Shown: positions 21 through 24,354 of the stretch, piece by piece | How positions within the stretch are numbered: the first letter of the stretch is position 1 | Layout: every line of letters begins with the position of its first letter | The notes under the pieces: generated by a model | What the model was told of the DNA's origin: nothing | What the model saw: the letters and a program-made list of their open reading frames with translations, nothing else | Database searches by the model: none | IMG/VR virus record: IMGVR_UViG_3300032335_000935 | Location: 4,090-68,089 of that record | Length of the DNA: 64,000 nucleotides | Direction: 5' to 3' (one strand) | DNA from: a virus | Translations under genes and position numbers: made by a program

Positions 21-230
21 TTGAATTCTGCTCGCATGGTGGACCGTACCGCTCCACAATGGCTGTTGGATACTTTTGGAAAATCAACTCCAGATCCTTT
101 GCAAGTGCAAGAATATGTGCTGGATCAACTGTCTATGCTCGACATAGATTTCCTGGTGACTGACTTGTTGATTTCTGAATATCCTGATGAAGTCATGGAC
201 GGAAATATTAGAATGGTATTTAAAAAATGA
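21..230 (+). CDS. hypothetical protein (69 aa)
   Basis: ORF track; small acidic protein; stop overlaps next start (ATGA at 227-230). Confidence 0.3.
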   Translation: MNSARMVDRTAPQWLLDTFGKSTPDPLQVQEYVLDQLSMLDIDFLVTDLLISEYPDEVMDGNIRMVFKK

Positions 231-742
231 GCATAGTAGTAACAGGTTCTGCTGGATATATTGGCGGACCTCTCAGATCCAACAATCCTGAGTATGTTGA
301 ACGTGCCCGCCGTATGGAGGCAGAGGGCAAGCTCCGGATCTATGACAACATAAGCAAGAATGAATACTATGCTCATCTCAACAACACTCGTGTGTTGTTT
401 AATTGTGCTCTACAAGATTGGGTTTCAAACACCGTATCAGAGGCCGATACTCTTGGATGCAATGTGCTATATCCTGCCTATCGCAGTTTTCCCGAAACCT
501 TCGCGAACGATCCCAATAGACTGTATATTCCTTGGAGCCTAGATGATGCCTATCACAAAATGCAAAACCTCTTGCGTGAACCGCATCACAACATGGGACT
601 TATTTCCAAATGGAACGATGGTACTGTTGATAGGATTGTTGACATACTGCTGGGCCAAGGTGAACAGTGGAATCGTGCAGGCAATCGCTATCGTGACCAT
701 GCTGCTCACGAAAAATATCAAGTGGTAAAGGTTGAGTCGTGA
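227..742 (+). CDS. hypothetical protein with N-terminal Rossmann-like VVTGSAGYIGG motif only (possible epimerase remnant fused to unrelated body)
   Basis: N-terminus MSIVVTGSAGYIGGPL resembles start of NAD-epimerases (cf. 1446 gene) but rest lacks SDR motifs. Confidence 0.4.
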   Translation: MSIVVTGSAGYIGGPLRSNNPEYVERARRMEAEGKLRIYDNISKNEYYAHLNNTRVLFNCALQDWVSNTVSEADTLGCNVLYPAYRSFPETFANDPNRLYIPWSLDDAYHKMQNLLREPHHNMGLISKWNDGTVDRIVDILLGQGEQWNRAGNRYRDHAAHEKYQVVKVES

Positions 743-1449
743 TCACACACTTTGTGACTTCGGGTTGCAGCTTTTCTGAACGTCCCGGTAACTGGCACAC
801 CTTGCTGCATGAGCGACTGGGTCGTTCCATACGTCACAGTCCATTGGGCATGAGCAGCCAGGGAAATGGCCTGGTCAGTCGGCGACTCATACATTACTGC
901 CAATATCTCATGGATCGAGGCATTGCACCAGACGAGATATTTGTGGCTGTGATGTGGAGTGGACCGGATCGGCATGACTATTACACTCGCAGTGATCCGG
1001 GCTTTTCAGGCAACACTCATGGCTGGAGTCGTAATCCTGTGCAGTTTGTTGATGGTGGCGAAGGTGCCTGGGTCATATTTAACCCACTGTGGACCATGCA
1101 CAATTGTGAAACATGGTATCGCCACTTTCATGACGACGTGGGTGCTGTGATTTCAACACTGGAGCATGTGCTGCGCACTCAGTGGTACTTGAAAAATTTA
1201 GGCATCCGCTACGTGATGTCTACATACATGAACACTGTGTTGCCAGACTGGTGTGCTGAACACCCAGACACTGCACACTTGTGGCACATGTTGGATCATG
1301 GCAGTTTTGTGCCAGTGTCGGGCATGTGGGAGTGGTGTCGTGATGCCACTGATATTGAGTTCCGAGCCGGAGACTATCATCCGGTGCCGGAACACCACAA
1401 AGCATTTGTAGAACAGGTCATGTGGCCATTTGTAAAGGAACGTATATGA
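739..1449 (+). CDS. SGNH/GDSL-like hydrolase family protein (paralog A)
   Basis: N-term TSGCSFSERPG (GDS-like block I) and C-term DYHPVPEHH (DxxH block V); paralogous to 11627, 12337, 32275 ORFs. Confidence 0.5.
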   Translation: MITHFVTSGCSFSERPGNWHTLLHERLGRSIRHSPLGMSSQGNGLVSRRLIHYCQYLMDRGIAPDEIFVAVMWSGPDRHDYYTRSDPGFSGNTHGWSRNPVQFVDGGEGAWVIFNPLWTMHNCETWYRHFHDDVGAVISTLEHVLRTQWYLKNLGIRYVMSTYMNTVLPDWCAEHPDTAHLWHMLDHGSFVPVSGMWEWCRDATDIEFRAGDYHPVPEHHKAFVEQVMWPFVKERI

Positions 1450-2393
1450 AAGTAGTTGTAACTGGAGCCGCTGGATATGTGGGCTCGCAAACTGTGTTGG
1501 CATTGAGTGATGCTGGGCACGAGGTCTTGGCCATTGATCATGTGTCGCTGCCCAAGGCTGTGAGTGCAGTGTGTGCACAGCAATTGATTCAAAACTTTGC
1601 GTCAGACACAGCCTTGGATTGGGTTCGGTATCATCAACCACAGGCTGTGATTCACTGTGCTGCCGAAAGCACTGTGGGCCCCAGCATGACCAATCCCAGC
1701 AGCTACTACGATGTCAATGTGGTAGGCACCAAGAGACTGATTGACACTGTGCGGCAAATGCCCGGCGTTAAGTTTGTGTTCTCAAGCTCGGCTGCGGTAT
1801 ACGGTGAGCCCATAATGACTCCCTGTCATGAAGTTGACCCTTGTGAACCCATTAACCCTTACGGTGAAACTAAGCTGGTGATTGAGCGACTGTTGGCCAG
1901 TTACTTCCGTGCCTATGGTCAAGAATATGTGGCTTTTAGATATTTCAACGTGGCCGGTGCTGACAGTCAAGGTCGTGCAGGGCCACATCGCGACGGCAGT
2001 CACATCATTGAACGTGCACTGCAATCAGTCACACAAGGCACCACGTTTGAACTCTACGGCACTGACTATCCCACTCGTGATGGAACTTGTGTGCGAGATT
2101 ACGTGCATGTGGAGGATGTGGCTCAAGCACATGTCATGGCCTTGAGCTCTACAATTGAGTCAGGAGTGTACAACCTTGGCAGTGACCAGGGCGTAAGCAA
2201 CCTTGAAGTGTTGGCAGCCGTTCATTGCGCAACTGGACAAGCTGTGACTGTGCAACACTGCGATCGACGTCTGGGAGATCCAGCACAACTCACAGCCAGT
2301 CCTGCCCGTTGGATTACTACTACCAAAGGTGGTTGGAAGGCTCAAGGGCTTGATAGTATGATTTCTAGTGCATGGGCCTGGTTTCAGTCATGA
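1446..2393 (+). CDS. galE: NAD-dependent UDP-sugar 4-epimerase (GalE-like)
   Basis: MKVVVTGAAGYVGS Rossmann motif, SSSAAVYG, YGETK catalytic YxxxK; RBS AAGGA 7 nt upstream; ATGA overlap with previous gene. Confidence 0.8.
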   Translation: MKVVVTGAAGYVGSQTVLALSDAGHEVLAIDHVSLPKAVSAVCAQQLIQNFASDTALDWVRYHQPQAVIHCAAESTVGPSMTNPSSYYDVNVVGTKRLIDTVRQMPGVKFVFSSSAAVYGEPIMTPCHEVDPCEPINPYGETKLVIERLLASYFRAYGQEYVAFRYFNVAGADSQGRAGPHRDGSHIIERALQSVTQGTTFELYGTDYPTRDGTCVRDYVHVEDVAQAHVMALSSTIESGVYNLGSDQGVSNLEVLAAVHCATGQAVTVQHCDRRLGDPAQLTASPARWITTTKGGWKAQGLDSMISSAWAWFQS

Positions 2394-3514
2394 CATACAG
2401 CGTACACCAACACTGGGATCCATTAAGGGTGTGCGTTGTTGGTCGCAGTTGGAATCCTGAATTCTACTCATGGATCAAGGTTCCGCATGTGCGACACTTG
2501 TTTGAGCGCATTGCCGAAGAAACTGAGGAGGATTATCAAAATCTCATTGCTAAGTTAGAGAGCTTTGGCGTCAAGATATTGCGACCTACCATGCCTGAAC
2601 CATTCAAACACGGGCGATATACCATACCTCCTATGTCACCTAGAGACCACATGGTAATGATTGGAGATAAACTATATCGCAATAGTAGCGATTGGGATTG
2701 GTTTTACAAAAAAGTCAAAGATGACGCTTGGCCCAACGCACTGTTTAACCAGTTACCTAGCCATATACAAGAAGAGTGCATAAATGTGCATGGCTGGAAA
2801 ACGGATCAAGCTGATTATGCATATGACCGTTGTTACGCTGATATTTTTAAACATGTACGAGAACAAGGAAATCAGATTGTAGACGGATATGCATTTTCCA
2901 ATGGAGCCATGACTTCTCGGGTAGGTAAAGATCTTTATATAGGTACTTGGCTAATAGATGAGAACATTGAAGTTCTCAAAAAACAAACACAAGAACAATA
3001 TCCCAATCATCGAACTCATGTAATACACACCGTTGGGCACACCGACGGTACTTTTTGTCCAGTTGCTCCTGGACTAATAATCAGTCTCATGGATGGTCCC
3101 ACATATGAAAACACCTTTCCGGGCTGGGAGGTAGTGAATTTACAAGGACAAAGCTGGGAACAAATTGGGCCTTTTCTAACACTCAAACACAAAAATCACG
3201 GCAAATGGTGGATCCCGGGGTTTGAATACGATCAAGATGTAGTCAACGTAGTAGAAACATGGTTGAGTCACTGGACTGGTTATGTTGAAGAAACAGTGTT
3301 TGATGTCAACATGTTGATTGTGGACCCAAAAAATGTCATAGTGTTTAATCACAACGACAAAGTATTCAAAGCATTTGCTCGATATGGCATAACACCGCAC
3401 GTGGTGCCATTTAGACACAGGTATTTTTGGGATGGAGGTATACACTGCATCACTACTGATCTAGATCGACAAGGTACACAACAAGACTATTTTCCCGAAA
3501 GAAATCATGTTTGA
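2390..3514 (+). CDS. amidinotransferase-family protein
   Basis: N-term WDPLRVCVVGRSW, HTD motif, C-terminal GGIHCITTDL (Cys nucleophile context typical of amidinotransferase/arginine deiminase superfamily); ATGA overlap. Confidence 0.65.
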   Translation: MTYSVHQHWDPLRVCVVGRSWNPEFYSWIKVPHVRHLFERIAEETEEDYQNLIAKLESFGVKILRPTMPEPFKHGRYTIPPMSPRDHMVMIGDKLYRNSSDWDWFYKKVKDDAWPNALFNQLPSHIQEECINVHGWKTDQADYAYDRCYADIFKHVREQGNQIVDGYAFSNGAMTSRVGKDLYIGTWLIDENIEVLKKQTQEQYPNHRTHVIHTVGHTDGTFCPVAPGLIISLMDGPTYENTFPGWEVVNLQGQSWEQIGPFLTLKHKNHGKWWIPGFEYDQDVVNVVETWLSHWTGYVEETVFDVNMLIVDPKNVIVFNHNDKVFKAFARYGITPHVVPFRHRYFWDGGIHCITTDLDRQGTQQDYFPERNHV

Positions 3515-4112
3515 TGAAATTTTTGAATTTGAACAGGACCTAGCTCGCTTTACCGGCGCACCCTATGCAGTCATGACTGATTGTTGCACACATGCCATTG
3601 AGCTGTGCCTGCGCTATGATAATATTCGGCAGTGCAGTTTTACTCCATTTACCTATGTCAGTGTGCCCATGACTATGGTCAAACTGGGCATTGATTTTGA
3701 TTACTTTCCTGATCACTTGCCACATCGGCAGCAGTGGGTAGGCGAGTACAAGTTTGAAGCCACTCGTATCTGGGACAGTGCTCGCAGACTAGAACCCAAC
3801 ATGTATCGGCCTGGACAGATGCAATGTTTAAGTTTTGGTTTCAGCAAACCCATTGACATCAATCGTGGCGGTGCTATACTATTGGATGACCGAGAAGCCT
3901 GGCAGAAGCTGAGTCAAATGCGCAGTGACGGAAGAGATCTACGAATCTCACCTTGGGAGAAACAAACAGTCATGGAACTGGGTTTTCACTATCGCCCCAC
4001 CATAGAAGAAGCTCGTCGTGCACAAGCAGCCCTGGATCTCTATCAACAAAATCCACAGCCACCACGAGCAGTGAATTACCCAGACTGTCGTAATATTTTT
4101 ATTAAATCTTGA
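3507..4112 (+). CDS. hypothetical protein
   Basis: ORF track, 201 aa, no recognisable motif. Confidence 0.45.
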   Translation: MFDEIFEFEQDLARFTGAPYAVMTDCCTHAIELCLRYDNIRQCSFTPFTYVSVPMTMVKLGIDFDYFPDHLPHRQQWVGEYKFEATRIWDSARRLEPNMYRPGQMQCLSFGFSKPIDINRGGAILLDDREAWQKLSQMRSDGRDLRISPWEKQTVMELGFHYRPTIEEARRAQAALDLYQQNPQPPRAVNYPDCRNIFIKS

Positions 4113-4137
4113 CGCGGCTGTCTAAATACTGTATAAT
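4109..4137 (+). promoter_or_regulatory. sigma70-like promoter (TTGACG-N17-TATAAT); folE ATG lies about 7 nt after -10 (leaderless?)
   Basis: ttgacg 4109-4114, 17-nt spacer, tataat 4132-4137. Confidence 0.55.
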
Positions 4138-4143
4138 TGAATC

Positions 4144-5001
4144 ATGGACATCCTCGTCCCAAACTCGGAGAACAACTTGACCAAAGAATTTATACCAGAC
4201 CCCGTAATCAACGGTTCCGATAATCGAAAGTTTGTCAAAGACGAATATACACCGTTGGGCAAAGAAGTGTATGTAAAAGCCGGAGACGATATGAGCGACA
4301 AAGGCTACGAAGAAGCATATCTTTCAGATGTAATCCGTGCTAGAATGAAACGAGATAGTAAAAGATTCTGGGCTGGCGATAACATCTCAGATTACTTACA
4401 CGAAACAGACAAAGAACATTTGATAAACGAAGCTACAGAAGCATTTGAACTGGTGCTTGATCGTTTGCTGATTGATCGAGACTCAGATCCCAACAGTCAT
4501 GGCACAGCTCGACGACTGGCCAAGATGTACTTTAACGAAATCATGGCAGGTAGGTATGAACCCAGACCCGATGCAACATCATTCCCCAACAACTCGCAGG
4601 ACCGTTACGAAGGTATGCTGGTGGTTCGTAGCGAGTTGCGCAGCATGTGCAGTCATCATCACCAACCCGTGGCTGGTGTTGCTTATATTGGCATTATTGC
4701 CGCTCAGCACCTCATCGGTCTTTCAAAATATACACGCATCGCACAGTGGTGTGCGCGACGAGGCACCCTCCAGGAGGAGCTTTGTAACGACATTGCTCGA
4801 GAAATTGAGAGGGCCACAGGGGCCACGGACCTAGGTGTGTATATTCAGGCCACACATGGTTGCTGTGAAAATCGCGGCATCATGGCACACAGCAGTCTTA
4901 CACAGACCACAGTGCTTCGGGGTGCATTCCGCACAGATCCTGCTGTGAAAAAAGAGTTTTTTGACAACATCAAGCTTCAGCAAGACTGGGCACCACGCTA
5001 A
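4144..5001 (+). CDS. folE: GTP cyclohydrolase I
   Basis: SMCSHHHQPV...YIGIIAAQHLIGLSKYTRIAQWCARR matches FolE zinc-site/active-site segments (CEHH-like, GLSK..R..Q). Confidence 0.9.
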   Translation: MDILVPNSENNLTKEFIPDPVINGSDNRKFVKDEYTPLGKEVYVKAGDDMSDKGYEEAYLSDVIRARMKRDSKRFWAGDNISDYLHETDKEHLINEATEAFELVLDRLLIDRDSDPNSHGTARRLAKMYFNEIMAGRYEPRPDATSFPNNSQDRYEGMLVVRSELRSMCSHHHQPVAGVAYIGIIAAQHLIGLSKYTRIAQWCARRGTLQEELCNDIAREIERATGATDLGVYIQATHGCCENRGIMAHSSLTQTTVLRGAFRTDPAVKKEFFDNIKLQQDWAPR

Positions 5002-5013
5002 CAAGGAGATACT

Positions 5014-5700
5014 ATGTACGCAGATACTTTGGGAACTTACCGCTCGGCTTCGGCTCTAAATCAGGCCATGAGCCGAGTATACGGTCACATGATGTTGGCC
5101 GTGATCACCAGCATGCTGGTAGCTGGTTTGGTCAGCGGCAGCGCCGCGCTGATGGCATTCTTTTTCACTGGCTTCATGAAGTGGGTCACTATCTTTGCAC
5201 CTTTGGTGGCAGTGTTTGGTGTCACCATTGCACTCAATGCAAGGCCGCCCTTGGCCATGGCCACTGCACTGTTACATGGCTTTGCAGCCATCATGGGCTT
5301 GAGCTTTGCCAGTATTTTTGTGGTGTTCAACCTAGGCAGTGTGATCAGTGCTTTCATGGGCGCCGCAGTGTTGTTTGCTGTGATGAGTGGTTATGGTTAC
5401 TTTACCAAACAGAATCTTGACACTGTGGGCCGATATGCTTTTGTGGCCTTGATTGCCATTGTTGTGGTCAGCATCATCAACTTGTTTTTGGGCAGTTCAG
5501 TACTGCAAATGATTGTCAGTGCCATTGCTATCTTGGTGTTTTTGGCACTCACGGCCTATGACACTCAACAAATTCGTGAGAGCTTGAGTTCAGACTCGGC
5601 TGGACACACAGAAGAAATCTGCGGTGCACTGAGCTTGTATTTGGATTTTATCAACATCTTCCTGAGTCTTCTGCAATTGTTTGGTGAACGCAAGGAATAA
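5014..5700 (+). CDS. BAX inhibitor-1 / YccA (TMBIM) family membrane protein
   Basis: 7 predicted TM helices; C-terminal LSLYLDFINIFLSLLQLFGERKE matches BI-1/YccA signature. Confidence 0.75.
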   Translation: MYADTLGTYRSASALNQAMSRVYGHMMLAVITSMLVAGLVSGSAALMAFFFTGFMKWVTIFAPLVAVFGVTIALNARPPLAMATALLHGFAAIMGLSFASIFVVFNLGSVISAFMGAAVLFAVMSGYGYFTKQNLDTVGRYAFVALIAIVVVSIINLFLGSSVLQMIVSAIAILVFLALTAYDTQQIRESLSSDSAGHTEEICGALSLYLDFINIFLSLLQLFGERKE

Positions 5701-5702
5701 AC

Positions 5703-6098
5703 ATGACTGATCTTGATCAAGCACACCACAGTGGTGTAGCACCCTGGGATCTCAAAGTTGAAAGACTCAGTGACTATCATGTTGCAGTGTTTGAGGATCG
5801 ATTTCCAGTAACTCGTGGACATTTGTTGTTTGTTCCTGAATACAACAACGATGATATCATTGCAGAATGTTTTGAGGCTGCCTTGCGCGAGGGTCGCAGA
5901 CTGGTCACAGCTGGCGAATGCACTGCATTCAACATTGGTATCAACATGGGCTATGACGCTGGTCAAACTGTGATGTATCCACATGTGCACCTCATACCCA
6001 GACGTTCTGGAGACACAGCCAATCCTGTAGGCGGTGTACGTGGAGTGATCTTTGGGCAGGCCAATTATCGCTCAGGCGGCTACGAACTGCCTAAATAA
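5703..6098 (+). CDS. HIT-like (histidine-triad-like) domain protein
   Basis: TRGHLLFVP and YPHVHLIP resemble HIT/GalT half-motifs (only two His in triad position); assignment tentative. Confidence 0.4.
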   Translation: MTDLDQAHHSGVAPWDLKVERLSDYHVAVFEDRFPVTRGHLLFVPEYNNDDIIAECFEAALREGRRLVTAGECTAFNIGINMGYDAGQTVMYPHVHLIPRRSGDTANPVGGVRGVIFGQANYRSGGYELPK

Positions 6099-6176
6099 TC
6101 TCACAGCGGCCTGTCCGGCAATCACCCCGCTATACAAATTCTGCTTGCCTATGCTATACTAACATAGGAGGACGTT

Positions 6177-6716
6177 ATGGCAAAATTTTTATCTACCAAG
6201 ACTTACGGCAATGACCGTGGACTCAGCTGCTGCTTCCGTCAATGGCGCAGTCGACACAGTCATTGCAGTCTGTTGCACGGCTACTCAATTGGTATCCGAC
6301 TGGTGTTTGAAAGCGATACCTTAGATGACCGCAACTGGGTCATGGACTTTGGTGGCCTCAAGGCCTTCAAGGAGTGGAGCGAATACATGTTTGATCACAC
6401 CTTGCTCGTTACTCGAGATGACCCACATTATCAAATGTTTGTGAGCATGAGTGACCTGGGCCTGCAGGATCGCGGCGGCGTTTGTGACCTGCGCACTGTG
6501 GATGCTGTGGGTTGTGAAAAGTTTGCTGAGTTGGCCTATCAAGAAATGAACAAAATTTTGGAAAAGTTCAAGGCTGACGAACGCTATGAGTTCTACGATA
6601 GCCGCGTCAAAGAAAAACGTGGTTTCAGTGCACGTTATCCAGTGGGCGAATCAGTGCGCCTGCGCAGCGTAGAAGTATTTGAGCACAGCGGTAACTCGGC
6701 TACTTACGAAGGATGA
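6177..6716 (+). CDS. queD: 6-carboxytetrahydropterin synthase / PTPS-family protein (QueD-like)
   Basis: CCFRQWRSRHSHCSLLHGYSIG resembles PTPS Cys..HGH zinc/active-site region; good RBS AGGAGG upstream; adjacent to folE/queE. Confidence 0.55.
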   Translation: MAKFLSTKTYGNDRGLSCCFRQWRSRHSHCSLLHGYSIGIRLVFESDTLDDRNWVMDFGGLKAFKEWSEYMFDHTLLVTRDDPHYQMFVSMSDLGLQDRGGVCDLRTVDAVGCEKFAELAYQEMNKILEKFKADERYEFYDSRVKEKRGFSARYPVGESVRLRSVEVFEHSGNSATYEG

Positions 6717-6719
6717 TGC

Positions 6720-7559: not shown

Positions 7560-7562
7560 CTG

Positions 7563-9575
7563 ATGACATACAAAATTGCCTGGGTGCAGCCAAATTTCCA
7601 ACAAGGCCCCAAAGAATTCAACGCTCACTATCTGCCCTACTCAGCTGGTGTAATCTGGAGCTATGCTCGCACCGATGACTGGGTACGTGACAACTTTGAG
7701 CTCACTGACATGGTATGGCGGCGCGATGCTGTGGAGCCTTTGGCTCAACAACTCAGTGTCAACAACGTGGTGGCTTTCAGCACCTATGTGTGGAACCATC
7801 AGTACAACTACACCTTGGCTCGCAGAGTCAAAGAGCTCAACCCTGACTGCTTGATTGTGTTTGGTGGACCTGAGCCTGCCATCACTGATCCTGATTTGTT
7901 TCGCAAAGAACCCTACATGGATCTAGTGATTTGCTTCGAGGGTGAGATTACATTTCGCGAATTGTTGCGTAACTTTGAACGACGAAACTGGGAAAACATT
8001 CCGGGTCTGTTGATCAATTGTTCAGGCGAAGCTGTAAAAACCCCCGACGCTCGACGCATTGAAACCTTGGAGGAAGTGCCCAGTCCCTATCTCACAGGTG
8101 TGTTTGATGACATCATGGCACGTAATCCTGATGTAGAATGGAACGGCACACTGGAAACCAATCGTGGCTGCCCGTTTGCTTGTACGTTTTGTGACTGGGG
8201 ATCGTTGACCTACAACAAGGTCAAACACTTTGGTCTGGAACGAGTGTTTGAAGAGCTGGAGTGGATGGCCAAGCATCGCTGCGGTTTTATTTCCATCACT
8301 GACGCCAACTTTGGCATGTTCCCCGAGCGTGACAACATGATTGCTGACAAGATCATTGAAGTTCAAGAGCGTTATGGTTATCCCAAAACATTCAGTGTGG
8401 CCTGGGCCAAGAACCAAAAGCGCGAAGTAGTGGACATTGTAAAGAAGCTGTTGGACGCACCAGGCTTTAATCAAGGCCTGACCTTGAGTGTGCAGAGTCT
8501 GGATGTGGACGTTCTTGAAAACATTCGTCGCAAAAACATGGAAATGAACAAGCTAGAGGAAGTGTTTGAACTTTGTGAGCAGCGCAACATTCCCACTTAC
8601 ACCGAACTGATTCTAGGCTTGCCAGGGGAGACCTTGCAAGGCTGGAAAGACAACTTCTGGCGACTGTTCCGCATGGGCAATCATACTGGGCTCACGGTGT
8701 TCCAGGCCCAGATGCTGGAAAATGCCGAGATGAATCTGTTGCAAAAGAAGATGTTCCGCATCACAGCCACCAGAGTCACAGACTACTTCTCGGGCAGCTA
8801 CTCAAACGAACACATTGAAGAAGGCATTGACATTGTGACCAGTACTCGGGACTTACCACCTGAGACCATGTTGGATGCTGAAGTGTTTTCATGGTACATC
8901 AACACATTCCACATCAATGGTGTAAGCACATTGCTGAGTCGACTGGTGTACAAGTATCTGGGCATTGACTACAGCAACTTTTATGAAGACCTGTTTGAAT
9001 TTCTCAAACAAGACTCTTGGTTTGCACGTGAGATGCAAGAGGTGCGTCAATACTATGCCAACTGGATGAGTGACGGACGTATACGTCATCCCAATATTGG
9101 TGGCATTGAGATCCACGGCTGGAACCTCATACACCGTAGCATTCTCAACATGCACGTGGACAACCAGTACGACAACATTTTTGCGTTGCTGGCCCAGTTC
9201 ATGGCTCGTTATGACTTGCCGCAGGATCTACTGGATGATGCTATGCAGTTCCAACGTAGGTATCTCATTGCCTACAACGATCGACATCAGTATCCCATGC
9301 AACTAGAACTGAACCACAATCTTTGGGATTACCTTACTTTTGATCGACCGTTAGAACAGGGTCGTTGTGTGTATAACTTGGACTTCCCCGAGGACAAGAA
9401 CATGAGCTTCCCGCGCTTTCTCGAACTGTTTTATTTTGCCCGACGACGCAACTTTGGCAAAGCCATGGTAGAATTGGTAGATGGCAACACTAACGGAGCC
9501 CGACGTGGCGAGGCTGCATCGCGAGCATCTGGACAAACCACTGTTGCATTAACCACCATACCGGTAGTACAATAA
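7563..9575 (+). CDS. B12-binding-domain radical SAM enzyme
   Basis: N-terminal B12-binding-like region (LIVFGGPEP), NRGCPFACTFCDWG = Cx3Cx2C radical-SAM cluster motif; 670 aa. Confidence 0.75.
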   Translation: MTYKIAWVQPNFQQGPKEFNAHYLPYSAGVIWSYARTDDWVRDNFELTDMVWRRDAVEPLAQQLSVNNVVAFSTYVWNHQYNYTLARRVKELNPDCLIVFGGPEPAITDPDLFRKEPYMDLVICFEGEITFRELLRNFERRNWENIPGLLINCSGEAVKTPDARRIETLEEVPSPYLTGVFDDIMARNPDVEWNGTLETNRGCPFACTFCDWGSLTYNKVKHFGLERVFEELEWMAKHRCGFISITDANFGMFPERDNMIADKIIEVQERYGYPKTFSVAWAKNQKREVVDIVKKLLDAPGFNQGLTLSVQSLDVDVLENIRRKNMEMNKLEEVFELCEQRNIPTYTELILGLPGETLQGWKDNFWRLFRMGNHTGLTVFQAQMLENAEMNLLQKKMFRITATRVTDYFSGSYSNEHIEEGIDIVTSTRDLPPETMLDAEVFSWYINTFHINGVSTLLSRLVYKYLGIDYSNFYEDLFEFLKQDSWFAREMQEVRQYYANWMSDGRIRHPNIGGIEIHGWNLIHRSILNMHVDNQYDNIFALLAQFMARYDLPQDLLDDAMQFQRRYLIAYNDRHQYPMQLELNHNLWDYLTFDRPLEQGRCVYNLDFPEDKNMSFPRFLELFYFARRRNFGKAMVELVDGNTNGARRGEAASRASGQTTVALTTIPVVQ

Positions 9576-9579
9576 AGCT

Positions 9580-10467
9580 ATGAAAATCAAAGTCAGTGAA
9601 ATATTTTATTCTGCGCAAGGCGAAGGACGCTTTATTGGTGTTCCTAGTGTTTTCCTTAGAACGTTCGGATGCAATTTTACTTGCGCGGGCTTTGGCTGCG
9701 CTCCCGGATCAGTATCTACAGAAGCCGATGAGGTGGCAAAGAACATTCATCTTTACAAAGACTTCAACAGCTTGCCTCTGGTCAATACCGGCTGCGACAG
9801 TTATGCTAGCTGGCACCCGGCATTTAAAGAACTCAGTCCCAATCTAGACACTGTTGACTTGGTAGATCGCATGTTGGCGTTGACCCCCAATCAACACTGG
9901 GTACAACACAACGGCAACGATGTACATCTTGTGATCACAGGCGGTGAGCCTTTGTTGGGTTGGCAGCGAGCATACGAAGAACTGCTGAATCATGACGCCA
10001 TGCGTGATCTACAAAATTTAACTTTTGAAACCAATGGCACTCAAACACTGCAACCCAAATTCAGACAGTTCTTGTTGAACTGGAGTTTGAACAGTACCAA
10101 AAACTCACGCAGTGTGGCACGTGGCTCCAACAACTTGACATTCAGTGTCAGTCCCAAATTGTCAGCATCAGGTGAAAACTGGAGTGATGCTATTTGTCCC
10201 AACGTCATTGCTGACTATCAAGAAATTGGCACAGTGTATCTCAAGTTTGTGCTAGACAGTGAACAGCATTTTGACGAAGTAGATCAGGCTGTGAGTGAGT
10301 TTCGCAGTCAAGGTTTCCGTGGGGTAGTATATGTGATGCCACAGGGCGGCGTAGTCACACCCTATGCTGAAAATCGTGTGCGTGTGGCCGACTGGGCATT
10401 AACCCGTGGCTACAACTACAGTCCCAGACTGCATGTGGATCTCTGGGGCAATGGTTGGGGCAAATGA
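9580..10467 (+). CDS. queE: 7-carboxy-7-deazaguanine synthase-like radical SAM protein (QueE-like, atypical Cys spacing)
   Basis: EIFYSAQGEGRFIGVPSVFLRTFGCNFTCAGFGC matches QueE N-terminal signature (FxSxQGEG...FxRxxGCN) but cluster is Cx3Cx4C. Confidence 0.65.
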   Translation: MKIKVSEIFYSAQGEGRFIGVPSVFLRTFGCNFTCAGFGCAPGSVSTEADEVAKNIHLYKDFNSLPLVNTGCDSYASWHPAFKELSPNLDTVDLVDRMLALTPNQHWVQHNGNDVHLVITGGEPLLGWQRAYEELLNHDAMRDLQNLTFETNGTQTLQPKFRQFLLNWSLNSTKNSRSVARGSNNLTFSVSPKLSASGENWSDAICPNVIADYQEIGTVYLKFVLDSEQHFDEVDQAVSEFRSQGFRGVVYVMPQGGVVTPYAENRVRVADWALTRGYNYSPRLHVDLWGNGWGK

Positions 10468-10919
10468 CCCCGGACGTGATGTTAGGAGCGTTAGATATGT
10501 TTGATAAACTCAAAGGTTGGTTTGGCAAAAATGCTCAGGTAAATCCTCCGCCTGCTCAATCAAGACCTGAGCCCCCACCAAGCCCTCCCAAAAAGAAGGA
10601 ATCTGTCAAAACAGAAAAAGAGTTGGCCACAGAACGCGGGGAACCATGGATACAAGTTTTGCGCATTGATGTAGATCCTGAAAATCTACATCAGGGTGCG
10701 TTTGAACTGGACTGGAACGAGATCTTTGTGGCCCGCTTGGTCAAAGCTGGTTACATGATCAAACGTGAAGACACTGATGCTGAAATAGTGGATCGCTGGT
10801 TTCAAAATGTATGCAGACACGTTGTGATGGAGACTTGGGAACAAGAGCAGGCCATCAAACAATCCGGTATCTACGTACAGAGCAGAGATATAGGTGGAGG
10901 TCGGAGTGCAGTATCATGA
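10455..10919 (+). CDS. hypothetical protein (Pro-rich N-terminus)
   Basis: ORF track. Confidence 0.4.
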   Translation: MGQMTPDVMLGALDMFDKLKGWFGKNAQVNPPPAQSRPEPPPSPPKKKESVKTEKELATERGEPWIQVLRIDVDPENLHQGAFELDWNEIFVARLVKAGYMIKREDTDAEIVDRWFQNVCRHVVMETWEQEQAIKQSGIYVQSRDIGGGRSAVS

Positions 10920-11164
10920 GCATGCACTCACGCGAGCAAGCACAAGAATTTCTACGACAACTGGGACTGTTACGTCGGCGGCGGGTGCTAGAAGGCACTG
11001 AACGTGATCAAACCATGACCATGTTGCGACTGATTGGTCCAGGTGAACAATCAAACAATCAACGTTTTTTCAGTGAGACTTGGCAAGTGGGTCATATCAT
11101 GTACTGTCATACCACAGGTCAAGACATTGACGAATTGGAAGAAATAATTGACGATGATCTTTAA
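10914..11164 (+). CDS. hypothetical protein
   Basis: ATGA overlap start at 10914 chosen over 10811. Confidence 0.35.
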
Positions 11165-11630
11165 TCATATCAAACAACTCAAATCAGAAGGCAAAAGGAT
11201 TGGCATCACTTTTTCAACCTTTGACATGCTGCATGCAGGACACATTGCCATGCTGAGTGAAGCCAAGAACCACTGTGATTACCTCATTGCTGGCTTGCAA
11301 ACAGATCCCACAATTGATAGGCCCGACACTAAGAATCGCCCTGTGCAAAGCATTGTTGAGCGACAAATACAGCTGGCCGCATGTCGTTATGTTGATGAAG
11401 TTGTTGTTTATCAAACTGAACAAGATCTACGAGACCTGTTGTTGATTCTGCCAGTAGACGTGCGTATACTAGGTGTAGAGTACGAAGGCAAGAATTTCAG
11501 TGGCGACGAAGAATGTTGGAAACGCAATATTGAGATTGTGTTTAACGGGCGTGACCACTCATTCTCATCCAGCAGCCTTCGCAAACGTGTGGTAGCTGCT
11601 GAAACAGAAAAAGTTTTATTGCAAAAATGA
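11148..11630 (+). CDS. cytidylyltransferase-like nucleotidyltransferase (HxGH motif)
   Basis: GITFSTFDMLHAGH = (T/H)xGH nucleotidyltransferase signature of CTP:glycerol-3-P cytidylyltransferase / RfaE-II family. Confidence 0.7.
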   Translation: MTMIFNHIKQLKSEGKRIGITFSTFDMLHAGHIAMLSEAKNHCDYLIAGLQTDPTIDRPDTKNRPVQSIVERQIQLAACRYVDEVVVYQTEQDLRDLLLILPVDVRILGVEYEGKNFSGDEECWKRNIEIVFNGRDHSFSSSSLRKRVVAAETEKVLLQK

Positions 11631-12340
11631 TTTTGTACGTCAACGGCGACAGTCACAGTGTGGGCCATGGTACCGCATATCATGCCGGCATGTGTTTTGA
11701 TGACACTAAGACCAAACATCTGGGAGAGGCACCACATCCAGAAAACTTTCCACACAGCTATGGCGCATTATTGGCCAACCAACTTGACACTAATCTGGTG
11801 TGTCAAGCCCTGAGTGGCGGCAGCTTGGATCGAGCCATCCGCACCACCAAAACTTTTGTGTATCAATCTCAAGGACCAGTTTTTGTGTTGTTGGGTGTGC
11901 CTAGCTGGGAACGCACAGAAAAGTTCTACCACTATTCATGGTGGCCCATTAATTTTACTGGTCACGAACCCTTGCCGCCTGGACTGCATGCGTGGTACAA
12001 AAATTGGATCCTAGAATGGCAACGTGGCAGCATGCGGTACTATCATGATCAACCAGGTTTGCATCAACAACTGATTGATTTTCATGAGTGGTTAAACCAA
12101 CACAGCATCAAACATTTGTTTTTCAACACTGCACAGAGTTTTGTGACAGATGGTAGATTTGAACCATACGACTGGCAGGGGTGTTTCCTAACTCCGTATG
12201 GTGATCATACCACGCCCACTCACTATTTGAACTGGTGCCTTGACCAAGGGTTCCAGGACGACGAATACGGGCATTTTGGTAAAGATGCACATCGGGCCTG
12301 GGCCCAGCATCTGCTACCGCATATTCAGGCACTACTATGA
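11627..12340 (+). CDS. SGNH/GDSL-like hydrolase family protein (paralog B)
   Basis: MILYVNGDSHS (GDS block) and C-terminal DAHRAWAQHLL; tandem paralog of next gene. Confidence 0.5.
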   Translation: MILYVNGDSHSVGHGTAYHAGMCFDDTKTKHLGEAPHPENFPHSYGALLANQLDTNLVCQALSGGSLDRAIRTTKTFVYQSQGPVFVLLGVPSWERTEKFYHYSWWPINFTGHEPLPPGLHAWYKNWILEWQRGSMRYYHDQPGLHQQLIDFHEWLNQHSIKHLFFNTAQSFVTDGRFEPYDWQGCFLTPYGDHTTPTHYLNWCLDQGFQDDEYGHFGKDAHRAWAQHLLPHIQALL

Positions 12341-13041
12341 TCTTGTATGTCAACGGCGACAGTCATGCTGCTGCGGCCGAAGTTGTAAACGCCCATTCCT
12401 GGGCCTGTGATGACGGAGCATTATGGCAATGTGGACGAGAGCCACATCCCGACAATGCGCGAGCCAGTTTTGGGTGCGAACTGGCCAATCATTTATGGGC
12501 AGTGTTGGAGTTGCAAGCACAAGCCGGTTGCAGCAATGCTCGAATCATGAGAACCACACGACAGTGGATTGATCAAAACCCTGATCTTATTGGTCAATGT
12601 TTCATGGTGATTCAATGGACTACTTGGGAACGAGAAGAGTGGTGGCACGATGGCAAGGACTATCAAGTCAATGCGTCGGGCATTGACACCGTGCCTCCCG
12701 AACTTCAGGATCGCTATCGCCAGTTTGTAATTGATGTAGATTGGGAAAGTGCCCGTGCTCAAGCACATCAAGACATCTGGGAATTTCATTGCGAGCTTGA
12801 TCGTTTGGGTGTCCGACATGTGATGTTCAATGGCAACAACCATTTTGAAGGAATTGAGCACAAACTGGATTGGGGCACCAGTTATATTGCACCCTATGAC
12901 TCAACCAAAACTTATGATTCAGTATTACGACAACAAGGTTTTGGTACAGTAAATCCACAAAGTTGGCATTTTGGGCCCAAAGCCCATTGCTTTTGGGCAG
13001 AATATCTGCTACAATACATCAAGAGCAACCAACTACTGTGA
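12337..13041 (+). CDS. SGNH/GDSL-like hydrolase family protein (paralog C)
   Basis: MILYVNGDSHA, C-terminal KAHCFWAEYLL; same N-terminal 10 aa as upstream paralog. Confidence 0.5.
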   Translation: MILYVNGDSHAAAAEVVNAHSWACDDGALWQCGREPHPDNARASFGCELANHLWAVLELQAQAGCSNARIMRTTRQWIDQNPDLIGQCFMVIQWTTWEREEWWHDGKDYQVNASGIDTVPPELQDRYRQFVIDVDWESARAQAHQDIWEFHCELDRLGVRHVMFNGNNHFEGIEHKLDWGTSYIAPYDSTKTYDSVLRQQGFGTVNPQSWHFGPKAHCFWAEYLLQYIKSNQLL

Positions 13042-13045
13042 CCAC

Positions 13046-14131
13046 ATGAAATACCTTATAATTGACACTGCCAACATGTTTTTTCGTGCCCGGCATTCAG
13101 CACATCGTGCTTCGGACACATGGACCAAGTTGGGGTTTGCACTGCATGTCACGCTGATGGCTGCCAACAAAGTGGCCCGTAAATTTGAGCCTGACCATGT
13201 CATATTTGCACTGGAAGGTCGTTCGTGGCGCAAAGATCACTACCGTCCCTACAAGGCCAATCGTGCCGTGGCACGTGATGCCATGACAGAAACCGAAGCA
13301 GAAGAGGACAAACTGTTTTGGGAAACTTATGACCAGTTGTGTCAGTATCTTGGCACCCGTACCAATTGCAGTGTGATTCGCTGTGCCACTGCCGAAGCTG
13401 ATGACATCATTGCTCGCTGGATTGCCTTGCATCCACAGGATCAGCACACCATTGTCAGCAGTGACTCAGACTTTGTGCAACTGGTTGCGCCCAATGTTTG
13501 CCTCTACAATGGCATCAACGATCACTTGTTCACTGTCAGCGGGGTGGAGGATGACAAAGGTCGATCATTGAAATTCACAGTCAAAAGTGACAGCAAGATC
13601 AAAGTTGAGAAACATGATCCTGACTTTGTTGCCCCTGTGGATTATCATCGTTGGGCATTGTTCTTGAAGTGTGTGCGTGGTGATCCCGGCGACAATGTGT
13701 TTTCGGCCTACCCTGGTGCACCTATCAAAGGCAGCAAGAATCGCGTGGGTTTGACCGAAGCGTTCGAAGATCGTGGCCGTCGTGGCTATGCTTGGAACAA
13801 TCTCATGCTTCAGCGTTGGACTGACCACAACAATCAAGAACACAAGGTCTTGGACGACTACGACCGCAACCGTGTGTTGATTGATCTTACTGCACAGCCT
13901 GACACAGTCAAACAGGTTGTAGATGAATGCATACGCCAACAGATCAGTCACCGTGACATAGGTCAAGTAGGCGTGCACTTCATGAAATTCTGCGGCAAAT
14001 ACGAACTCAACAAACTCAGCGAGCATGCTGAAACTCTGAGTCGTTGGATGAACAAAACCTATCAAGGAGCACTGAATGATATTGGCCAAGCCCATAGTAG
14101 CCAACCGCTACTGGATACTCAAGAAGGATGA
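13046..14131 (+). CDS. 5'-3' exonuclease / flap endonuclease (T4 RNase H / T5 D15-like)
   Basis: MKYLIIDTANMFFRA...EADDIIA...acidic clusters typical of PIN-like FEN; start after stop of previous gene. Confidence 0.8.
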   Translation: MKYLIIDTANMFFRARHSAHRASDTWTKLGFALHVTLMAANKVARKFEPDHVIFALEGRSWRKDHYRPYKANRAVARDAMTETEAEEDKLFWETYDQLCQYLGTRTNCSVIRCATAEADDIIARWIALHPQDQHTIVSSDSDFVQLVAPNVCLYNGINDHLFTVSGVEDDKGRSLKFTVKSDSKIKVEKHDPDFVAPVDYHRWALFLKCVRGDPGDNVFSAYPGAPIKGSKNRVGLTEAFEDRGRRGYAWNNLMLQRWTDHNNQEHKVLDDYDRNRVLIDLTAQPDTVKQVVDECIRQQISHRDIGQVGVHFMKFCGKYELNKLSEHAETLSRWMNKTYQGALNDIGQAHSSQPLLDTQEG

Positions 14132-14522
14132 CGAAAAAATTGGTGAAGTAGAAGCCAGTGACTCAGGAGTCACGGTGAAAATCCACAACCAAGTACACCA
14201 GTACAAGACCATACGCATGGCCGGACGCGATGGCAACATTGAGTTCGAAACAGTACCTCGTGCTCGTGCACGAATCACAAACGAAGTATATGGTTATGCA
14301 GTGTCAGGTCGTGTGTACAACCCTGTGTGGGATGTCAAGCATCGATTGCCGCTGTACACACGAGACAACAAGAGCAAATCTTGGTACGCTGCCGGCTGGT
14401 ACAGTATCCAGCAACACCGAAGCTGGCGTGTTACACGCAACCCCAAGTTGATTATGCTACAGCGTTACAAATACCAAGGACCTTTCCATACCGAGGAGCA
14501 AGCACGTGAATCCATTTCGTGA
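14076..14522 (+). CDS. hypothetical protein
   Basis: ORF track. Confidence 0.4.
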   Translation: MILAKPIVANRYWILKKDDEKIGEVEASDSGVTVKIHNQVHQYKTIRMAGRDGNIEFETVPRARARITNEVYGYAVSGRVYNPVWDVKHRLPLYTRDNKSKSWYAAGWYSIQQHRSWRVTRNPKLIMLQRYKYQGPFHTEEQARESIS

Positions 14523-14883
14523 TCAAGAAAAATTTATGCGGGCCTGTGATCAAAGCACAGACCATTTCAACGGCACACAGTTTGACATGTACTGTGCTTT
14601 GATTGATGAAGAAGTGGGCGAACTGCACACTGCTTTAGAAACCTTGGATGTAGAGAACGACGTCAATATTCTTGACGCCTTGATTGATATCTTGGTAGTG
14701 ACCACTGGTGCTATACACAGCATGGGCGCCGATGCTGAAGGCGCTTGGAAGGAAGTCATGCGTACTAACTTTGCCAAGATTGACCGAGAAACTGGCAAAG
14801 TTCGCAAGCGCGAAGATGGCAAAGTATTGAAGCCACAAGGATGGACGCCGCCCGATCTCAAACCATTTGTGCGCAAGTCATGA
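14506..14883 (+). CDS. mazG: MazG-like nucleotide pyrophosphohydrolase
   Basis: ALIDEEVGELHTALE (EExGE), small all-alpha NTP-PPase pattern. Confidence 0.75.
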   Translation: MNPFRDQEKFMRACDQSTDHFNGTQFDMYCALIDEEVGELHTALETLDVENDVNILDALIDILVVTTGAIHSMGADAEGAWKEVMRTNFAKIDRETGKVRKREDGKVLKPQGWTPPDLKPFVRKS

Positions 14884-24258: not shown

Positions 24259-24333
<75 letters not shown>

Positions 24334-24354
24334 CCATATTTTAGAGAGTGCATC

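Follow-up and report, generated by a model that had tools for sequence, protein, structure and literature searches.

What does a giant phage make with the enzymes of 7-deazaguanine synthesis when their genes are embedded among those for sugar-nucleotide, glycosyl-, methyl- and acyl-transfer enzymes, and on which target does the product act? A conserved gene island of about 20 kb, bordered by a sliding-clamp-like gene on one side and by the RNase H/FEN gene from the replication module on the other, has its downstream three quarters at positions 227-14883 of the window, a 64,000-nucleotide stretch of phage DNA. The lineage carrying the island is an abundant freshwater jumbo (giant) phage, with contigs of up to about 350 kb. 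The features considered are as follows, numbers of loci in the list referring to gene presence, by tblastn, over 81 other related loci that were fetched.

227-742, + strand: u227, a 171-residue C-terminal duplicate of GT410 (92% identity with the C-terminal end of L087:2079-3311)
739-1449, + strand: SGNH-like (GCS-variant) protein (PF19547, DUF6071, E 3e-4, under the cut-off)
1446-2393, + strand: UDP-glucose 4-epimerase GalE (TIGR01179, 297.9 bits, cut-off 262.3; kept in 53 related loci)
2390-3514, + strand: amidinotransferase-superfamily protein (phmmer against the PDB; phrog_25854)
3507-4112, + strand: shortened DegT-like protein, 201 residues (PF01041, E 6e-12 in two stretches; 50 loci)
4144-5001, + strand: GTP cyclohydrolase I FolE (PF01227, E 1e-37), extended N-terminally by about 90 residues
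5014-5700, + strand: BI-1/YccA-type membrane protein (PF01027, E 2e-47)
5703-6098, + strand: HIT-family protein (PF01230, 34.8 bits, cut-off 21.5; 63 loci)
6177-6716, + strand: QueD-type 6-carboxytetrahydropterin synthase (PTPS, T-fold; PF01242, 55.8 bits, cut-off 22.4)
6720-7559, + strand: u6720, 279 residues, weakly glycosyltransferase-like (phrog_14945 'glycosyltransferase', E 2e-6)
7563-9575, + strand: cobalamin-dependent (class B) radical-SAM methyltransferase, TokK/CysS-like (PF02310 and PF04055)
9580-10467, + strand: QueE-type 7-carboxy-7-deazaguanine synthase, phage subfamily (phrog_2076 'QueE-like radical SAM', E 3e-52)
10464-10919, + strand: u10455, its N-terminus disordered and rich in K/P, with a conserved domain of 90 residues (alignment A3)
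11148-11630, + strand: small cytidylyl/adenylyltransferase, RfaE domain II/TagD-like (PF01467, 47.7 bits; 77 loci)
11627-12340 and 12337-13041, + strand: two tandem SGNH-type paralogs (32% identity to each other, E 5e-33)
13046-14131, + strand: FEN/T4 RNase H-type 5'-3' exonuclease (PF02739, E 3e-20)
14506-14883, + strand: MazG-type NTP pyrophosphohydrolase (PF01503, 38.4 bits; 59 loci)
18678-20153, - strand: AsnB-type glutamine amidotransferase, distal and full (PF00733, E 2e-19, and PF13537; 14 loci)
29918-30994: distal ORF with an SGGSDS PP-loop motif

The original prediction had placed FolE, QueD and QueE in one translationally coupled block with GalE, an amidinotransferase, a B12 radical-SAM enzyme, a cytidylyltransferase, HIT and BI-1 proteins, followed by FEN and MazG. 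All are present and co-directional on the + strand, the three deazaguanine genes lie in a single, partly overlapping block, and, as to coupling, 11 of 19 gene junctions overlap by 4-56 nt, with gaps of 2-78 nt at the rest. Chance falls far short of explaining this arrangement. The gene order is repeated in at least 80 IMG/VR loci anchored on the B12 enzyme (66-88% identity), the common order in 80 of them being GT410-GalE-DegT'-FolE-HIT-QueD-u6720-B12-QueE-u10455-CTP-SGNH-FEN-MazG. The accessory genes vary strongly among relatives (PRT, Rieske, MetK, SAM methyltransferases, FG-GAP, HhH-GPD, YhhQ). In some relatives the island includes a queuosine-precursor transporter (YhhQ/Vut_1) as well as a phosphoribosyltransferase (PRT) of guanine type.

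The amidinotransferase and BI-1, both stressed in the prediction, turn out to be accessory as well, occurring at this position in 13 and 10 of the 81 loci, respectively; BI-1 lies elsewhere in other loci. Neither Pfam nor NCBIfam gave a match to the amidinotransferase homolog, which in phmmer searches of the PDB matches L-arginine:glycine amidinotransferase (AGAT), HsvA, StrB1 and SxtG over its C-terminal 65 residues (E 1e-10 to 6e-8); the catalytic-Cys motif GGIHCIT is retained. Three SGNH-like paralogs had been proposed. The tandem pair stands, both members beginning with MILYVNGDSH, the SGNH block I motif, and the first (11627-12340) scoring 27.5 bits against DUF6071 (cut-off 27), but the protein at 739-1449, with the N-terminus VTSGCSFS and a tblastn match in one of the 81 loci, is just a distant GCS-variant relative.

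Towards the downstream border, u10455 is a backbone protein and probably lies outside the pathway; the annotation of its PA5oct homolog, gp160, is virion structural protein. FEN, which shares 45% identity with the PA5oct exonuclease gp159, marks the border itself and belongs to the replication backbone. MazG is possibly linked to the pathway, since the phiST cluster contains a gene annotated as MazG-like (CGPG_00068). Two distal genes had also been brought into the prediction: the AsnB-type protein is indeed a full amidotransferase, with an MCGI N-terminus and SGGVDS, any link to the pathway being hypothetical, and the PP-loop ORF has the motif but no QueC similarity, and no family or PDB sequence match.

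The core enzymes are, as judged by sequence, true members of the phage 7-deazaguanine families. FolE is 37% identical to that of Cellulophaga phage phiST, and the PTPS, which the NCBIfam QueD profile scores under its cut-off, is 40-42% identical to phiST QueD and has the same C-x3-HGY motif. QueE gave no Pfam match and matches PDB QueE structures in its N-terminal motif only; tblastn links it to 183 phage records including phiST, CP220, KVP40 and PA5oct, all four of which have its invariant C31, C35, C72, QGEG and TGGEP. QueC is absent from the block, as predicted.

The prediction further held that no DpdA was evident nearby, which proves to be an effect of the window's edge: a DpdA-like gene lies upstream in every relative that could be checked. 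The contig of the window's own genome (L087) has a DpdL-like T-fold gene 3.2 kb upstream of window base 1 (36% identity to phiST CGPG_00067, E 4e-15) and at its edge the 3' end of u170; it ends before the expected position of the DpdA-like gene, which is found neither there nor in the window. In relatives, u240, the DpdA-like gene, u170 and the DpdL-like gene stand upstream in 58 of 58 loci anchored on the glycosyltransferase-like gene and in 36 of 36 metagenome loci, and from this synteny we infer a DpdA-like gene in the window's genome too. No near-identical genome was found, the metagenome scan giving 81-83% identity for its top DpdL-like match. The DpdA-like protein of the relatives (500-545 residues, very divergent) has a TGT/DpdA fold in its AF2 model (pLDDT 87.8), for which Foldseek returned TGTs as the sole matches at E<=1e-3; the best structural match is the DNA insertase DpdA. 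Ties to known DpdA/TGT at the level of sequence are weak: the family, in which DSGG.Q, LNVLQG, HFLG and SFD are invariant, has no Pfam match, 2 of 50 members match TGT (E 0.043) and hhalign against DpdA3 gives 11.8%. It would be a DpdA subfamily of which we found no description.

Most likely, then, the phage replaces guanine in its DNA by a 7-deazaguanine. FolE, QueD and QueE would convert GTP to 7-carboxy-7-deazaguanine (CDG), the DpdL-like protein would decarboxylate CDG to 7-deazaguanine, and the DpdA-like enzyme would exchange guanine in DNA for this base after replication, rendering the DNA refractory to host nucleases. For DpdL, decarboxylation of CDG has been proposed in phiST; the activity is predicted, heterologous tests having failed (PMC10516641). 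The fuller reading, that island sugar and methyl genes also decorate the base or its precursor, is one we favour with moderate confidence. Such decoration, in a manner not yet described, may be sugar-based and vary between lineages. Candidates for nucleotide-sugar supply are GalE, the cytidylyltransferase (81 bits against TIGR02199, under the cut-off) and the shortened DegT, which aligns near the PLP lysine with DegT aminotransferases of the PDB and keeps an SF..SK lysine motif.

Transfer of the sugar might fall to two glycosyltransferase-like candidates, GT410 (with its duplicate u227) and u6720. The latter, present in 81 of 81 loci, has an HTVC008M match (E 2e-5), no PDB sequence match and 1933 database relatives, none annotated; in every case a methyltransferase or SDR accompanies it. 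Its partner here, the B12 radical-SAM methyltransferase, a putative C-methyltransferase in the scheme, matches TokK (E 2e-82) and CysS (E 8e-46) in the PDB, has CPFACTFC at residue 203 and about 190 additional residues at its C-terminus, and counts 177 relatives in IMG/VR; in sister lineages, which are without it, a class-I SAM methyltransferase or SDR follows u6720 in its place. SGNH-type acyl hydrolases/transferases and, in a minority of genomes, the amidinotransferase complete the candidates.

A less probable but substantial alternative is that two unrelated functions have met, a plain DNA modification of phiST/PA5oct type and separate glycan genes, gathered in a permissive insertion hot-spot, that build or remodel host LPS, capsule or a virion glycoprotein. 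Genes of the GalE, DegT, RfaE-II-like and SGNH kinds characterise surface-polysaccharide loci, the PA5oct core stands without any such sugar genes, the accessory content is highly variable, and TokK and CysS, the nearest solved relatives of the B12 enzyme, work on small molecules. The phage also has glycan genes unconnected to the island, since a second pair, epimerase/dehydratase and DegT, lies at 59220-61251. Against this, the sugar genes are intermixed with the pathway between DpdL and QueE rather than tacked on to it, in an order kept in at least 80 loci, and the block gave no sign of a flippase, polymerase or undecaprenyl-phosphate transferase. GT410 argues in the same direction. This 410-residue GT-B glycosyltransferase-like gene lies directly upstream of the window (L087:2079-3311), and its homologs give weak Pfam Glycos_transf_1 matches (E 2.5e-6 in cyanophage BUCT-ZZ01). 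Exactly one homolog was found among 50,697 phage records, in BUCT-ZZ01 (63.5% identity), again beside the deazaguanine module; on these sequences GT410 co-occurs exclusively with the module, which ties glycosylation to it.

That deazaguanine is instead put into the phage's own tRNAs, as a queuosine-like wobble modification, stays conceivable because the 41 tRNA genes of the window cover each of the four families with GUN anticodons (Tyr, Asp, Asn, His), but we regard it as improbable. The closest structural match is a DNA insertase, the island lies within the DNA replication module from clamp-like gene to RNase H, and characterised phage QueE/DpdA systems all act on DNA (PMC10516641). PA5oct shares the enzyme family, and its DNA withstands cutting at restriction sites that contain G and is recognised as DNA with modified G (PMC12191111). 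Moreover, preQ0 is not made because there is no QueC, and with no QueF in the system either, preQ1, the other known tRNA substrate, is not made. Least probable of all is that the product stays free as a small molecule, either a pterin glycoside or a toyocamycin/tubercidin-type 7-deazapurine nucleoside, acting as cofactor, photoprotectant or toxin during infection: FolE, PTPS and glycosyltransferases resemble cyanobacterial pteridine-glycoside synthesis, a PRT beside QueE (as in about 10 relatives, BUCT-ZZ01 and PA5oct) is also seen in deazapurine nucleoside pathways, and the B12 enzyme and amidinotransferase are closest to natural-product enzymes, but the island includes a conserved DpdA-fold base-exchange enzyme, its QueE family is that of DNA-modifying phages, and the PRT, not found in the genome region of the window, is explained equally by salvage of guanine freed by base exchange.

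Comparison with cultured phages also speaks for the replacement of guanine in DNA. PhiST, which carries dDG, has the same enzyme set (FolE, QueD, QueE, DpdL and a DpdA) and likewise is without QueC (PMC10516641). PA5oct has a DpdA-like protein (gp168), a DpdL-like protein (56% identity), PRT, QueE (gp162) and FEN in the order of the island, but is without its sugar, glycosyltransferase, B12, SGNH and amidinotransferase genes. In BUCT-ZZ01 the GT410 homolog adjoins DpdL-like and DpdA-like genes (the latter assigned by hhalign, 91.5%, E 8.5e-7), with QueE, PRT, QueD and FolE. The island core is a CDG-branch system of phiST/PA5oct type, not a DpdA-less one. A DNA-base modification beyond the described preQ0, G+ and ADG pathways stays a live reading because the pathway is embedded among co-conserved sugar-nucleotide, glycosyl-, methyl- and acyl-transfer genes.

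Every ORF named in the original prediction is present, on the + strand and where it had been placed, so that the observation is confirmed. Within the block at 227-14883, 11 of the 19 ORF junctions overlap, by 4-56 nt, the remainder being separated by gaps of 2-78 nt.

Genes of the block, with the evidence for each assignment
1446-2393, +, GalE (TIGR01179, 297.9 bits against a curated equivalog cut-off of 262.3)
2390-3514, +, amidinotransferase homologue (C-terminal catalytic region matching AGAT, HsvA, StrB1 and SxtG in the PDB at E 1e-10 to 6e-8)
3507-4112, +, shortened DegT-like protein (profile search)
4144-5001, +, FolE (PF01227, 129.6 bits against a cut-off of 27)
5014-5700, +, BI-1 (profile search)
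5703-6098, +, HIT (profile search)
6177-6716, +, PTPS/QueD T-fold protein (PF01242 above cut-off; 40-42% identity to phiST QueD)
7563-9575, +, B12-binding radical-SAM enzyme (PF02310, 37.3 bits against 32.1; PF04055, 49.2 against 29.5)
9580-10467, +, QueE-like radical SAM (phrog_2076 'QueE-like radical SAM', E 3e-52)
11148-11630, +, cytidylyltransferase (profile search)
11627-13041, +, pair of SGNH-like paralogues (GDSH block I motif)
13046-14131, +, FEN (profile search)
14506-14883, +, MazG-type pyrophosphohydrolase (profile search)

Judged by the criteria of Hutinet 2019 and Cui 2023, FolE, QueD and QueE belong, on their sequences, to the families expected of phage 7-deazaguanine DNA modification systems. 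FolE lies below the cut-offs of the NCBIfam FolE models. QueD passes PF01242, with TIGR03367 below its cut-off, and carries the same Cys-x3-His-Gly-Tyr motif as phiST QueD. The QueE-like ORF has no Pfam match and is matched by the curated NCBIfam QueE models over its N-terminal 36 aa only; its assignment holds through phrog_2076 and through end-to-end alignment with the QueE proteins of phiST, CP220, KVP40, PA5oct and BUCT-ZZ01, in which the Cys triad and the GGE motif are invariant. The QueE neighbourhood of KVP40 was uninformative.

Other expectations fared unevenly. The proposed amidinotransferase (2390-3514) resembles such enzymes at its C-terminal 65 aa (E 1e-10), where the catalytic-Cys motif GG.HC is retained as GGIHCIT, and it has no match in Pfam and NCBIfam profile searches. 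Two of three supposed SGNH-like paralogues, at 11627-13041, are real paralogues; the third, at 739-1449, is a distant GCS variant. Profile searches of the block's ORFs found no QueC, as had been anticipated. The distal PP-loop ORF (29918-30994, 358 aa; SGGSDS at residues 86-91) has no match in Pfam, PHROG or PDB sequences and no detectable similarity to QueC; its neighbours are the tRNA array and the gene for a TctA transporter (28617-29921). Since phiST and CP220 also do without QueC, its absence defines the branch that stops at 7-carboxy-7-deazaguanine (CDG) and does not exclude membership. The phiST system, which yields 7-deazaguanine in DNA (dDG), comprises FolE, QueD, QueE, DpdL, DpdA3 and a MazG-like gene (Cui et al. 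2023, PMC10516641), DpdL being a second T-fold protein proposed as a CDG decarboxylase.

The premise that the locus has no DpdA is probably wrong. A DpdL-like gene lies in the window's own genome, on its upstream extension (L087:440-889), 3.2-3.65 kb upstream of base 1, with 36% identity to phiST DpdL (E 4e-15). With phiST DpdL as query, homologues were found in 31 related loci, upstream of the gene for a 410-aa GT-B glycosyltransferase-like protein (GT410) that lies just upstream of the window, and also in Synechococcus phage BUCT-ZZ01. Upstream of DpdL, relatives with enough sequence encode a 240-aa clamp-like ORF, a 500-545-aa ORF and a 170-aa ORF, a trio present in all 58 IMG/VR loci and all 36 metagenome loci. 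The long ORF bears the motifs LGDSGGFQI, LNVLQG, GW..GG, HFLGTS and SFDCASPF and is the DpdA-like gene. Because the L087 contig ends within the 170-aa ORF, we infer its presence in the window's own genome by synteny; a metagenome scan found no genome near-identical to the window. The apparent lack of DpdA is probably an effect of the window's edge. The 170-aa ORF itself (L087:27-443; L026:2929-3435 family), conserved between the DpdA-like and DpdL-like genes and represented by 132 distinct sequences, has no family match; as a counterpart of phiST CGPG_00066, which has an analogous position, it was rejected on comparison.

The DpdA-like protein is recognised by fold. Three members matched no Pfam family; among 50 diverse members none matched DUF6610 and two reached the Pfam TGT family at E 0.043. 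A profile of 50 sequences matched no PDB sequence, fold comparison alone succeeding. An AlphaFold2 model from a shallow alignment (pLDDT 51) gave a meaningless fold search and was replaced by one from 102 sequences (pLDDT 87.8, pTM 0.87), with which tRNA-guanine transglycosylases were the sole Foldseek hits at E<=1e-3. The exclusivity of these hits identifies the protein, as modelled, as a TGT-superfamily enzyme, its predicted fold closest to DpdA. Comparison with DpdA3 of phiST (CGPG_00065) by hhalign gave a probability of 11.8% (E 0.0025, 122 columns, motifs in register). The DpdA3 profile is very shallow, its relatives being confined to four loci in IMG/VR and a handful of phage records; tblastn with DpdA3 found no relatives in the window or the loci. 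For comparison, the DpdA3 of phages stopping at CDG, phiST and CP220, is itself detectable by HHpred-level methods only (PMC10516641).

Neither PF01702, which marks bDpdA and DpdA1/2, nor DUF6610, which marks DpdA4, characterises the family, which is new in the sense that we found no description of this DpdA subfamily in the literature. Clustering of the family (L077:738-2372 and relatives; alignments A7 and A8) leaves 945 representatives when done at 50% identity, and over 7000 clusters when done at 90%. Among the best 120 matches listed per search its members are named 'hypothetical protein' only; they include PA5oct gp168 and BUCT-ZZ01 UTS52034.1, and tblastn matches fall in the PA5oct group (36% identity), Sinorhizobium phage Phosso and a Vibrio jumbo phage. 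Two other routes to a DpdA led nowhere. The 279-aa ORF at 6720-7559 (u6720), considered as a hidden DpdA, gave 0.25% by hhalign against phiST DpdA3 and nothing as a profile against the PDB, and resembles, weakly, a glycosyltransferase instead. When the ORFs of the window, of the extension upstream of it and of three stretches from reference phages were screened for the TGT zinc motif C.C..C, the only matches were an HNH-like ORF and short ORFs matching by chance. In the tRNA region, the ORF at 37839-38417 (192 aa) has a CxCxxC...H pattern and resembles an HNH homing endonuclease.

The block, metagenomic in origin, recurs on ENA scaffold KRAE22-1 scaffold_105, whereas its first 15 kb had no nucleotide-level match by megablast in a collection of 50,697 phage records. 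Across 80 loci anchored on the B12 enzyme the order GT410-GalE-shortened DegT-FolE-HIT-QueD-u6720-B12 enzyme-(variable)-QueE-u10455-cytidylyltransferase-SGNH-FEN-u14076-MazG is kept, u10455 (ORF 10464-10919) being a backbone protein common to PA5oct (gp160). The B12 enzyme has 177 IMG/VR relatives (66-88% identity; longest contig 349 kb), and u6720 has 1933 relatives in the databases (longest contig 353 kb). The amidinotransferase and BI-1 are accessory, occurring in 13/81 and 10/81 loci respectively.

Among the inserts that vary from relative to relative are a guanine-type PRT, a YhhQ/Vut_1 queuosine-precursor transporter, an HhH-GPD protein, a Rieske protein, MetK, class-I SAM methyltransferases and a second B12 enzyme. 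The YhhQ/Vut_1 gene (L038:8491-9111; 11 loci) and the PRT gene (L010:11922-12449, 10 loci; L001:15855-16316; L173:~16000-16227) lie inside the island of some relatives and have no counterpart in the window; the PRT might recycle released guanine and YhhQ import a precursor. As to the two ORFs of 151 and 82 aa that follow QueE, equivalence with the PRT and small ORF of BUCT-ZZ01 was rejected for want of similarity. The small HhH-GPD protein (EndoIII/Ogg-type; L038:5326-5736 and 11 other loci) is likewise encoded within the island. Host END nucleases sense modified G via an inactivated EndoIII domain (PMC12191111), and the island protein could serve as a decoy or act as a glycosylase on unmodified or foreign DNA.

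The B12 enzyme bears out the expected class B assignment: beyond its two Pfam domains it matches TokK (E 2e-82 over residues 22-481) and CysS (E 8e-46) in the PDB, and its CxxxCxxC motif reads CPFACTFC, as in a predicted cobalamin-dependent radical-SAM methyltransferase. It shares the B12-binding and radical-SAM domains and this motif with the TokK, CysS and KedN5 family, from which it differs in an extra C-terminal region, in being encoded by a phage and in not being a curated KedN5 member (272 bits, cut-off 700).

This enzyme and the other sugar, methyl and acyl-transfer genes may decorate the inserted base in DNA. The case for decoration begins with GT410, which has exactly one homologue among the 50,697 phage records, BUCT-ZZ01 GT388 (63.5% identity, above the 49% of QueD, 44% of QueE and 32% of FolE between the same two genomes), again positioned straight after the DpdL-like gene. 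It is favoured also by the 171-aa ORF at 227-742, a duplicate of the GT410 C-terminus, by the location of the sugar and methyl genes between DpdL and QueE and not on the pathway edge, by the pairing of u6720 in every case with a methyltransferase or SDR, and by the block's lack of polysaccharide export or polymerase genes. Against it, PA5oct does without the sugar and methyl genes, the island gathers many unrelated accessory genes, small molecules are the substrates of TokK and CysS, to which the B12 enzyme is most closely related among solved proteins, and a second sugar pair exists elsewhere in the window. No homology of the island glycosyltransferases to the T4 alpha- and beta-glucosyltransferases was detected. 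On these gene-content arguments decoration is a tentative reading, somewhat short of an even prospect. A fuller version, in which glycosylation by GT410 and u6720 after insertion would be joined by B12-dependent C-methylation of sugar or base, O-acylation by SGNH proteins and, in some genomes, amidination, the B12/SAM methyltransferase/SDR cassette diversifying under modification-sensing nucleases, we consider unlikely as a whole. In sublineages lacking the B12 enzyme, the gene directly after u6720 encodes a class-I SAM methyltransferase or an SDR; that sister lineages exchange the B12 radical-SAM enzyme for a SAM methyltransferase suggests a cassette caught up in an arms race.

The remainder of the window has the character of a jumbo phage.

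Features of the remaining window
24259-44201, +, 41 tRNA genes, including Tyr-GTA, Asp-GTC (x2), Asn-GTT (x2) and His-GTG, the four queuosine-family anticodons
26208-26768, permuted (two-piece) tmRNA, tag ANDDVYALAA (RF04321, 138.6 bits; alpha_tmRNA model, 51.5 bits)
34478-34944, GOLLD RNA within the tRNA array (RF02032, 204 bits, E 3e-56), with a tRNA-Asn embedded at 34540-34613
47186-48475, S-adenosylhomocysteine hydrolase
51981-55126, MoxR AAA ATPase and DUF2201/VWA metallopeptidase-like partner
57936-58628, ThyX
59220-61251, second nucleotide-sugar pair, far from the island: NAD-dependent epimerase/dehydratase and full-length DegT aminotransferase

The permuted tmRNA may hint at the host group, and the S-adenosylhomocysteine hydrolase may support heavy SAM use.

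The core of the island is real and ordinary-looking, most probably a 7-deazaguanine DNA modification system of the CDG branch. What is not ordinary is the DpdA subfamily, new to the literature we found, and the conserved embedded sugar/methyl/acyl cassette, which is partly module-specific. By established pathway chemistry and family membership, FolE, QueD and QueE would convert GTP to CDG, which the DpdL-like protein may convert to 7-deazaguanine, an activity predicted in the literature. The DpdA-like enzyme would then exchange G in DNA for the deazaguanine base, a role suggested by its modelled fold and in keeping with the DNA of PA5oct. MazG and HIT might, speculatively, act on the nucleotide pool, and the glycosyltransferases, GalE, cytidylyltransferase, B12/SAM methyltransferase, SGNH proteins and amidinotransferase may provide lineage-specific decoration.

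Deazaguanine DNA has DpdA as its signature, a rule that would now extend to a very large family for which the searches made here gave neither Pfam match nor functional name, and which occurs in jumbo phages abundant in lakes. Deazaguanine DNA modifications in the literature found carry small C7 substituents only, and we know of no sugar-bearing purine in DNA; a glycosylated base, if real, would be the first case of a purine in DNA hypermodified with a sugar. The tight, exclusive association of glycosyltransferase and module in two unrelated phage lineages offers a testable lead to such a decorated deazaguanine. Modifications of this kind affect restriction, CRISPR and the nanopore and enzymatic handling of environmental phage DNA.

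Among known systems, glucosyl-hydroxymethylcytosine of the T-even phages is a conceptual parallel only, base-modification genes accompanying glycosyltransferases and a UDP-sugar enzyme. T-even phages place sugar from host UDP-glucose on a modified base, and they differ from the island in base, enzymes and pre-replicative route. Bacterial DpdA (PDB 7ui4) shares only 15% identity with the DpdA-like protein, which has an extra C-terminal helical region of ~200 aa and no DpdB/DpdC partners, and whose substrate cannot be phage-made preQ0. Campylobacter phage CP220 (L083 12969-20072), with dADG in its DNA, has a QueE-like gene in whose vicinity are RNase H, another radical-SAM gene, a gene resembling sugar dehydrogenases and one for a protein of 503 aa that includes a cytidylyltransferase domain, an arrangement partly paralleling the present island.

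BUCT-ZZ01 (Kyanoviridae), a 156-kb cyanophage on which we found no experimental data in the literature, shares QueE, QueD, FolE and a DpdL-like T-fold protein with the window lineage in a different gene order, QueE-PRT-x-QueD-FolE-GT447-hyp416-T-fold-GT388, and its cluster does without the B12 radical-SAM, u6720, GalE and SGNH genes. Its hyp416 is DpdA-like (hhalign 91.5%, E 8.5e-7, motif ADSGGLQ).

Pseudomonas jumbo phage PA5oct (Wroclawvirus) carries, at gp170-gp159, a compact version of the island with the same backbone order: clamp-like gp170, DpdA-like gp168 (36%), annotated as hypothetical, a DpdL-like protein (56%), a PRT-like protein, QueE gp162 (31%), gp160, FEN gp159 (45%) and u14076. 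It does so without GT410, GalE, the shortened DegT, u6720, the B12 enzyme and the SGNH genes. An annotated cytidyltransferase (gp177) lies ~10 kb upstream of the block and a reported PTPS gene (gp230) also lies outside it; the PA5oct stretch that was fetched contained no match to FolE or QueD. Restriction assays in a 2025 preprint, to which PA5oct DNA proved resistant, indicate modified G in that DNA, and the phage is restricted by nucleases sensing modified G (PMC12191111). The authors noted QueE and PTPS and named neither insertase nor base (PMC12191111); through gp168 the DpdA-like family reaches this therapy-relevant phage.

Among the closest known systems is that of Cellulophaga phage phiST, with the same enzyme set. 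Direct homologues of phiST proteins are the window's FolE (37%) and QueD and the upstream DpdL-like protein, both QueE proteins belong to the phage subfamily phrog_2076, and a MazG-type gene is close by in each. The transglycosylase is in both cases too divergent for Pfam; that of the window lineage, at 500-545 aa, is twice as long as the 259-aa phiST protein and is not demonstrably DpdA3. Unlike phiST, the window's phage is a T4/PA5oct-like jumbo phage, and its island, ~20 kb in extent and situated between the clamp-like gene and RNase H/FEN, contains interleaved genes for sugar, methyl and acyl transfer that amount to ~10 kb.
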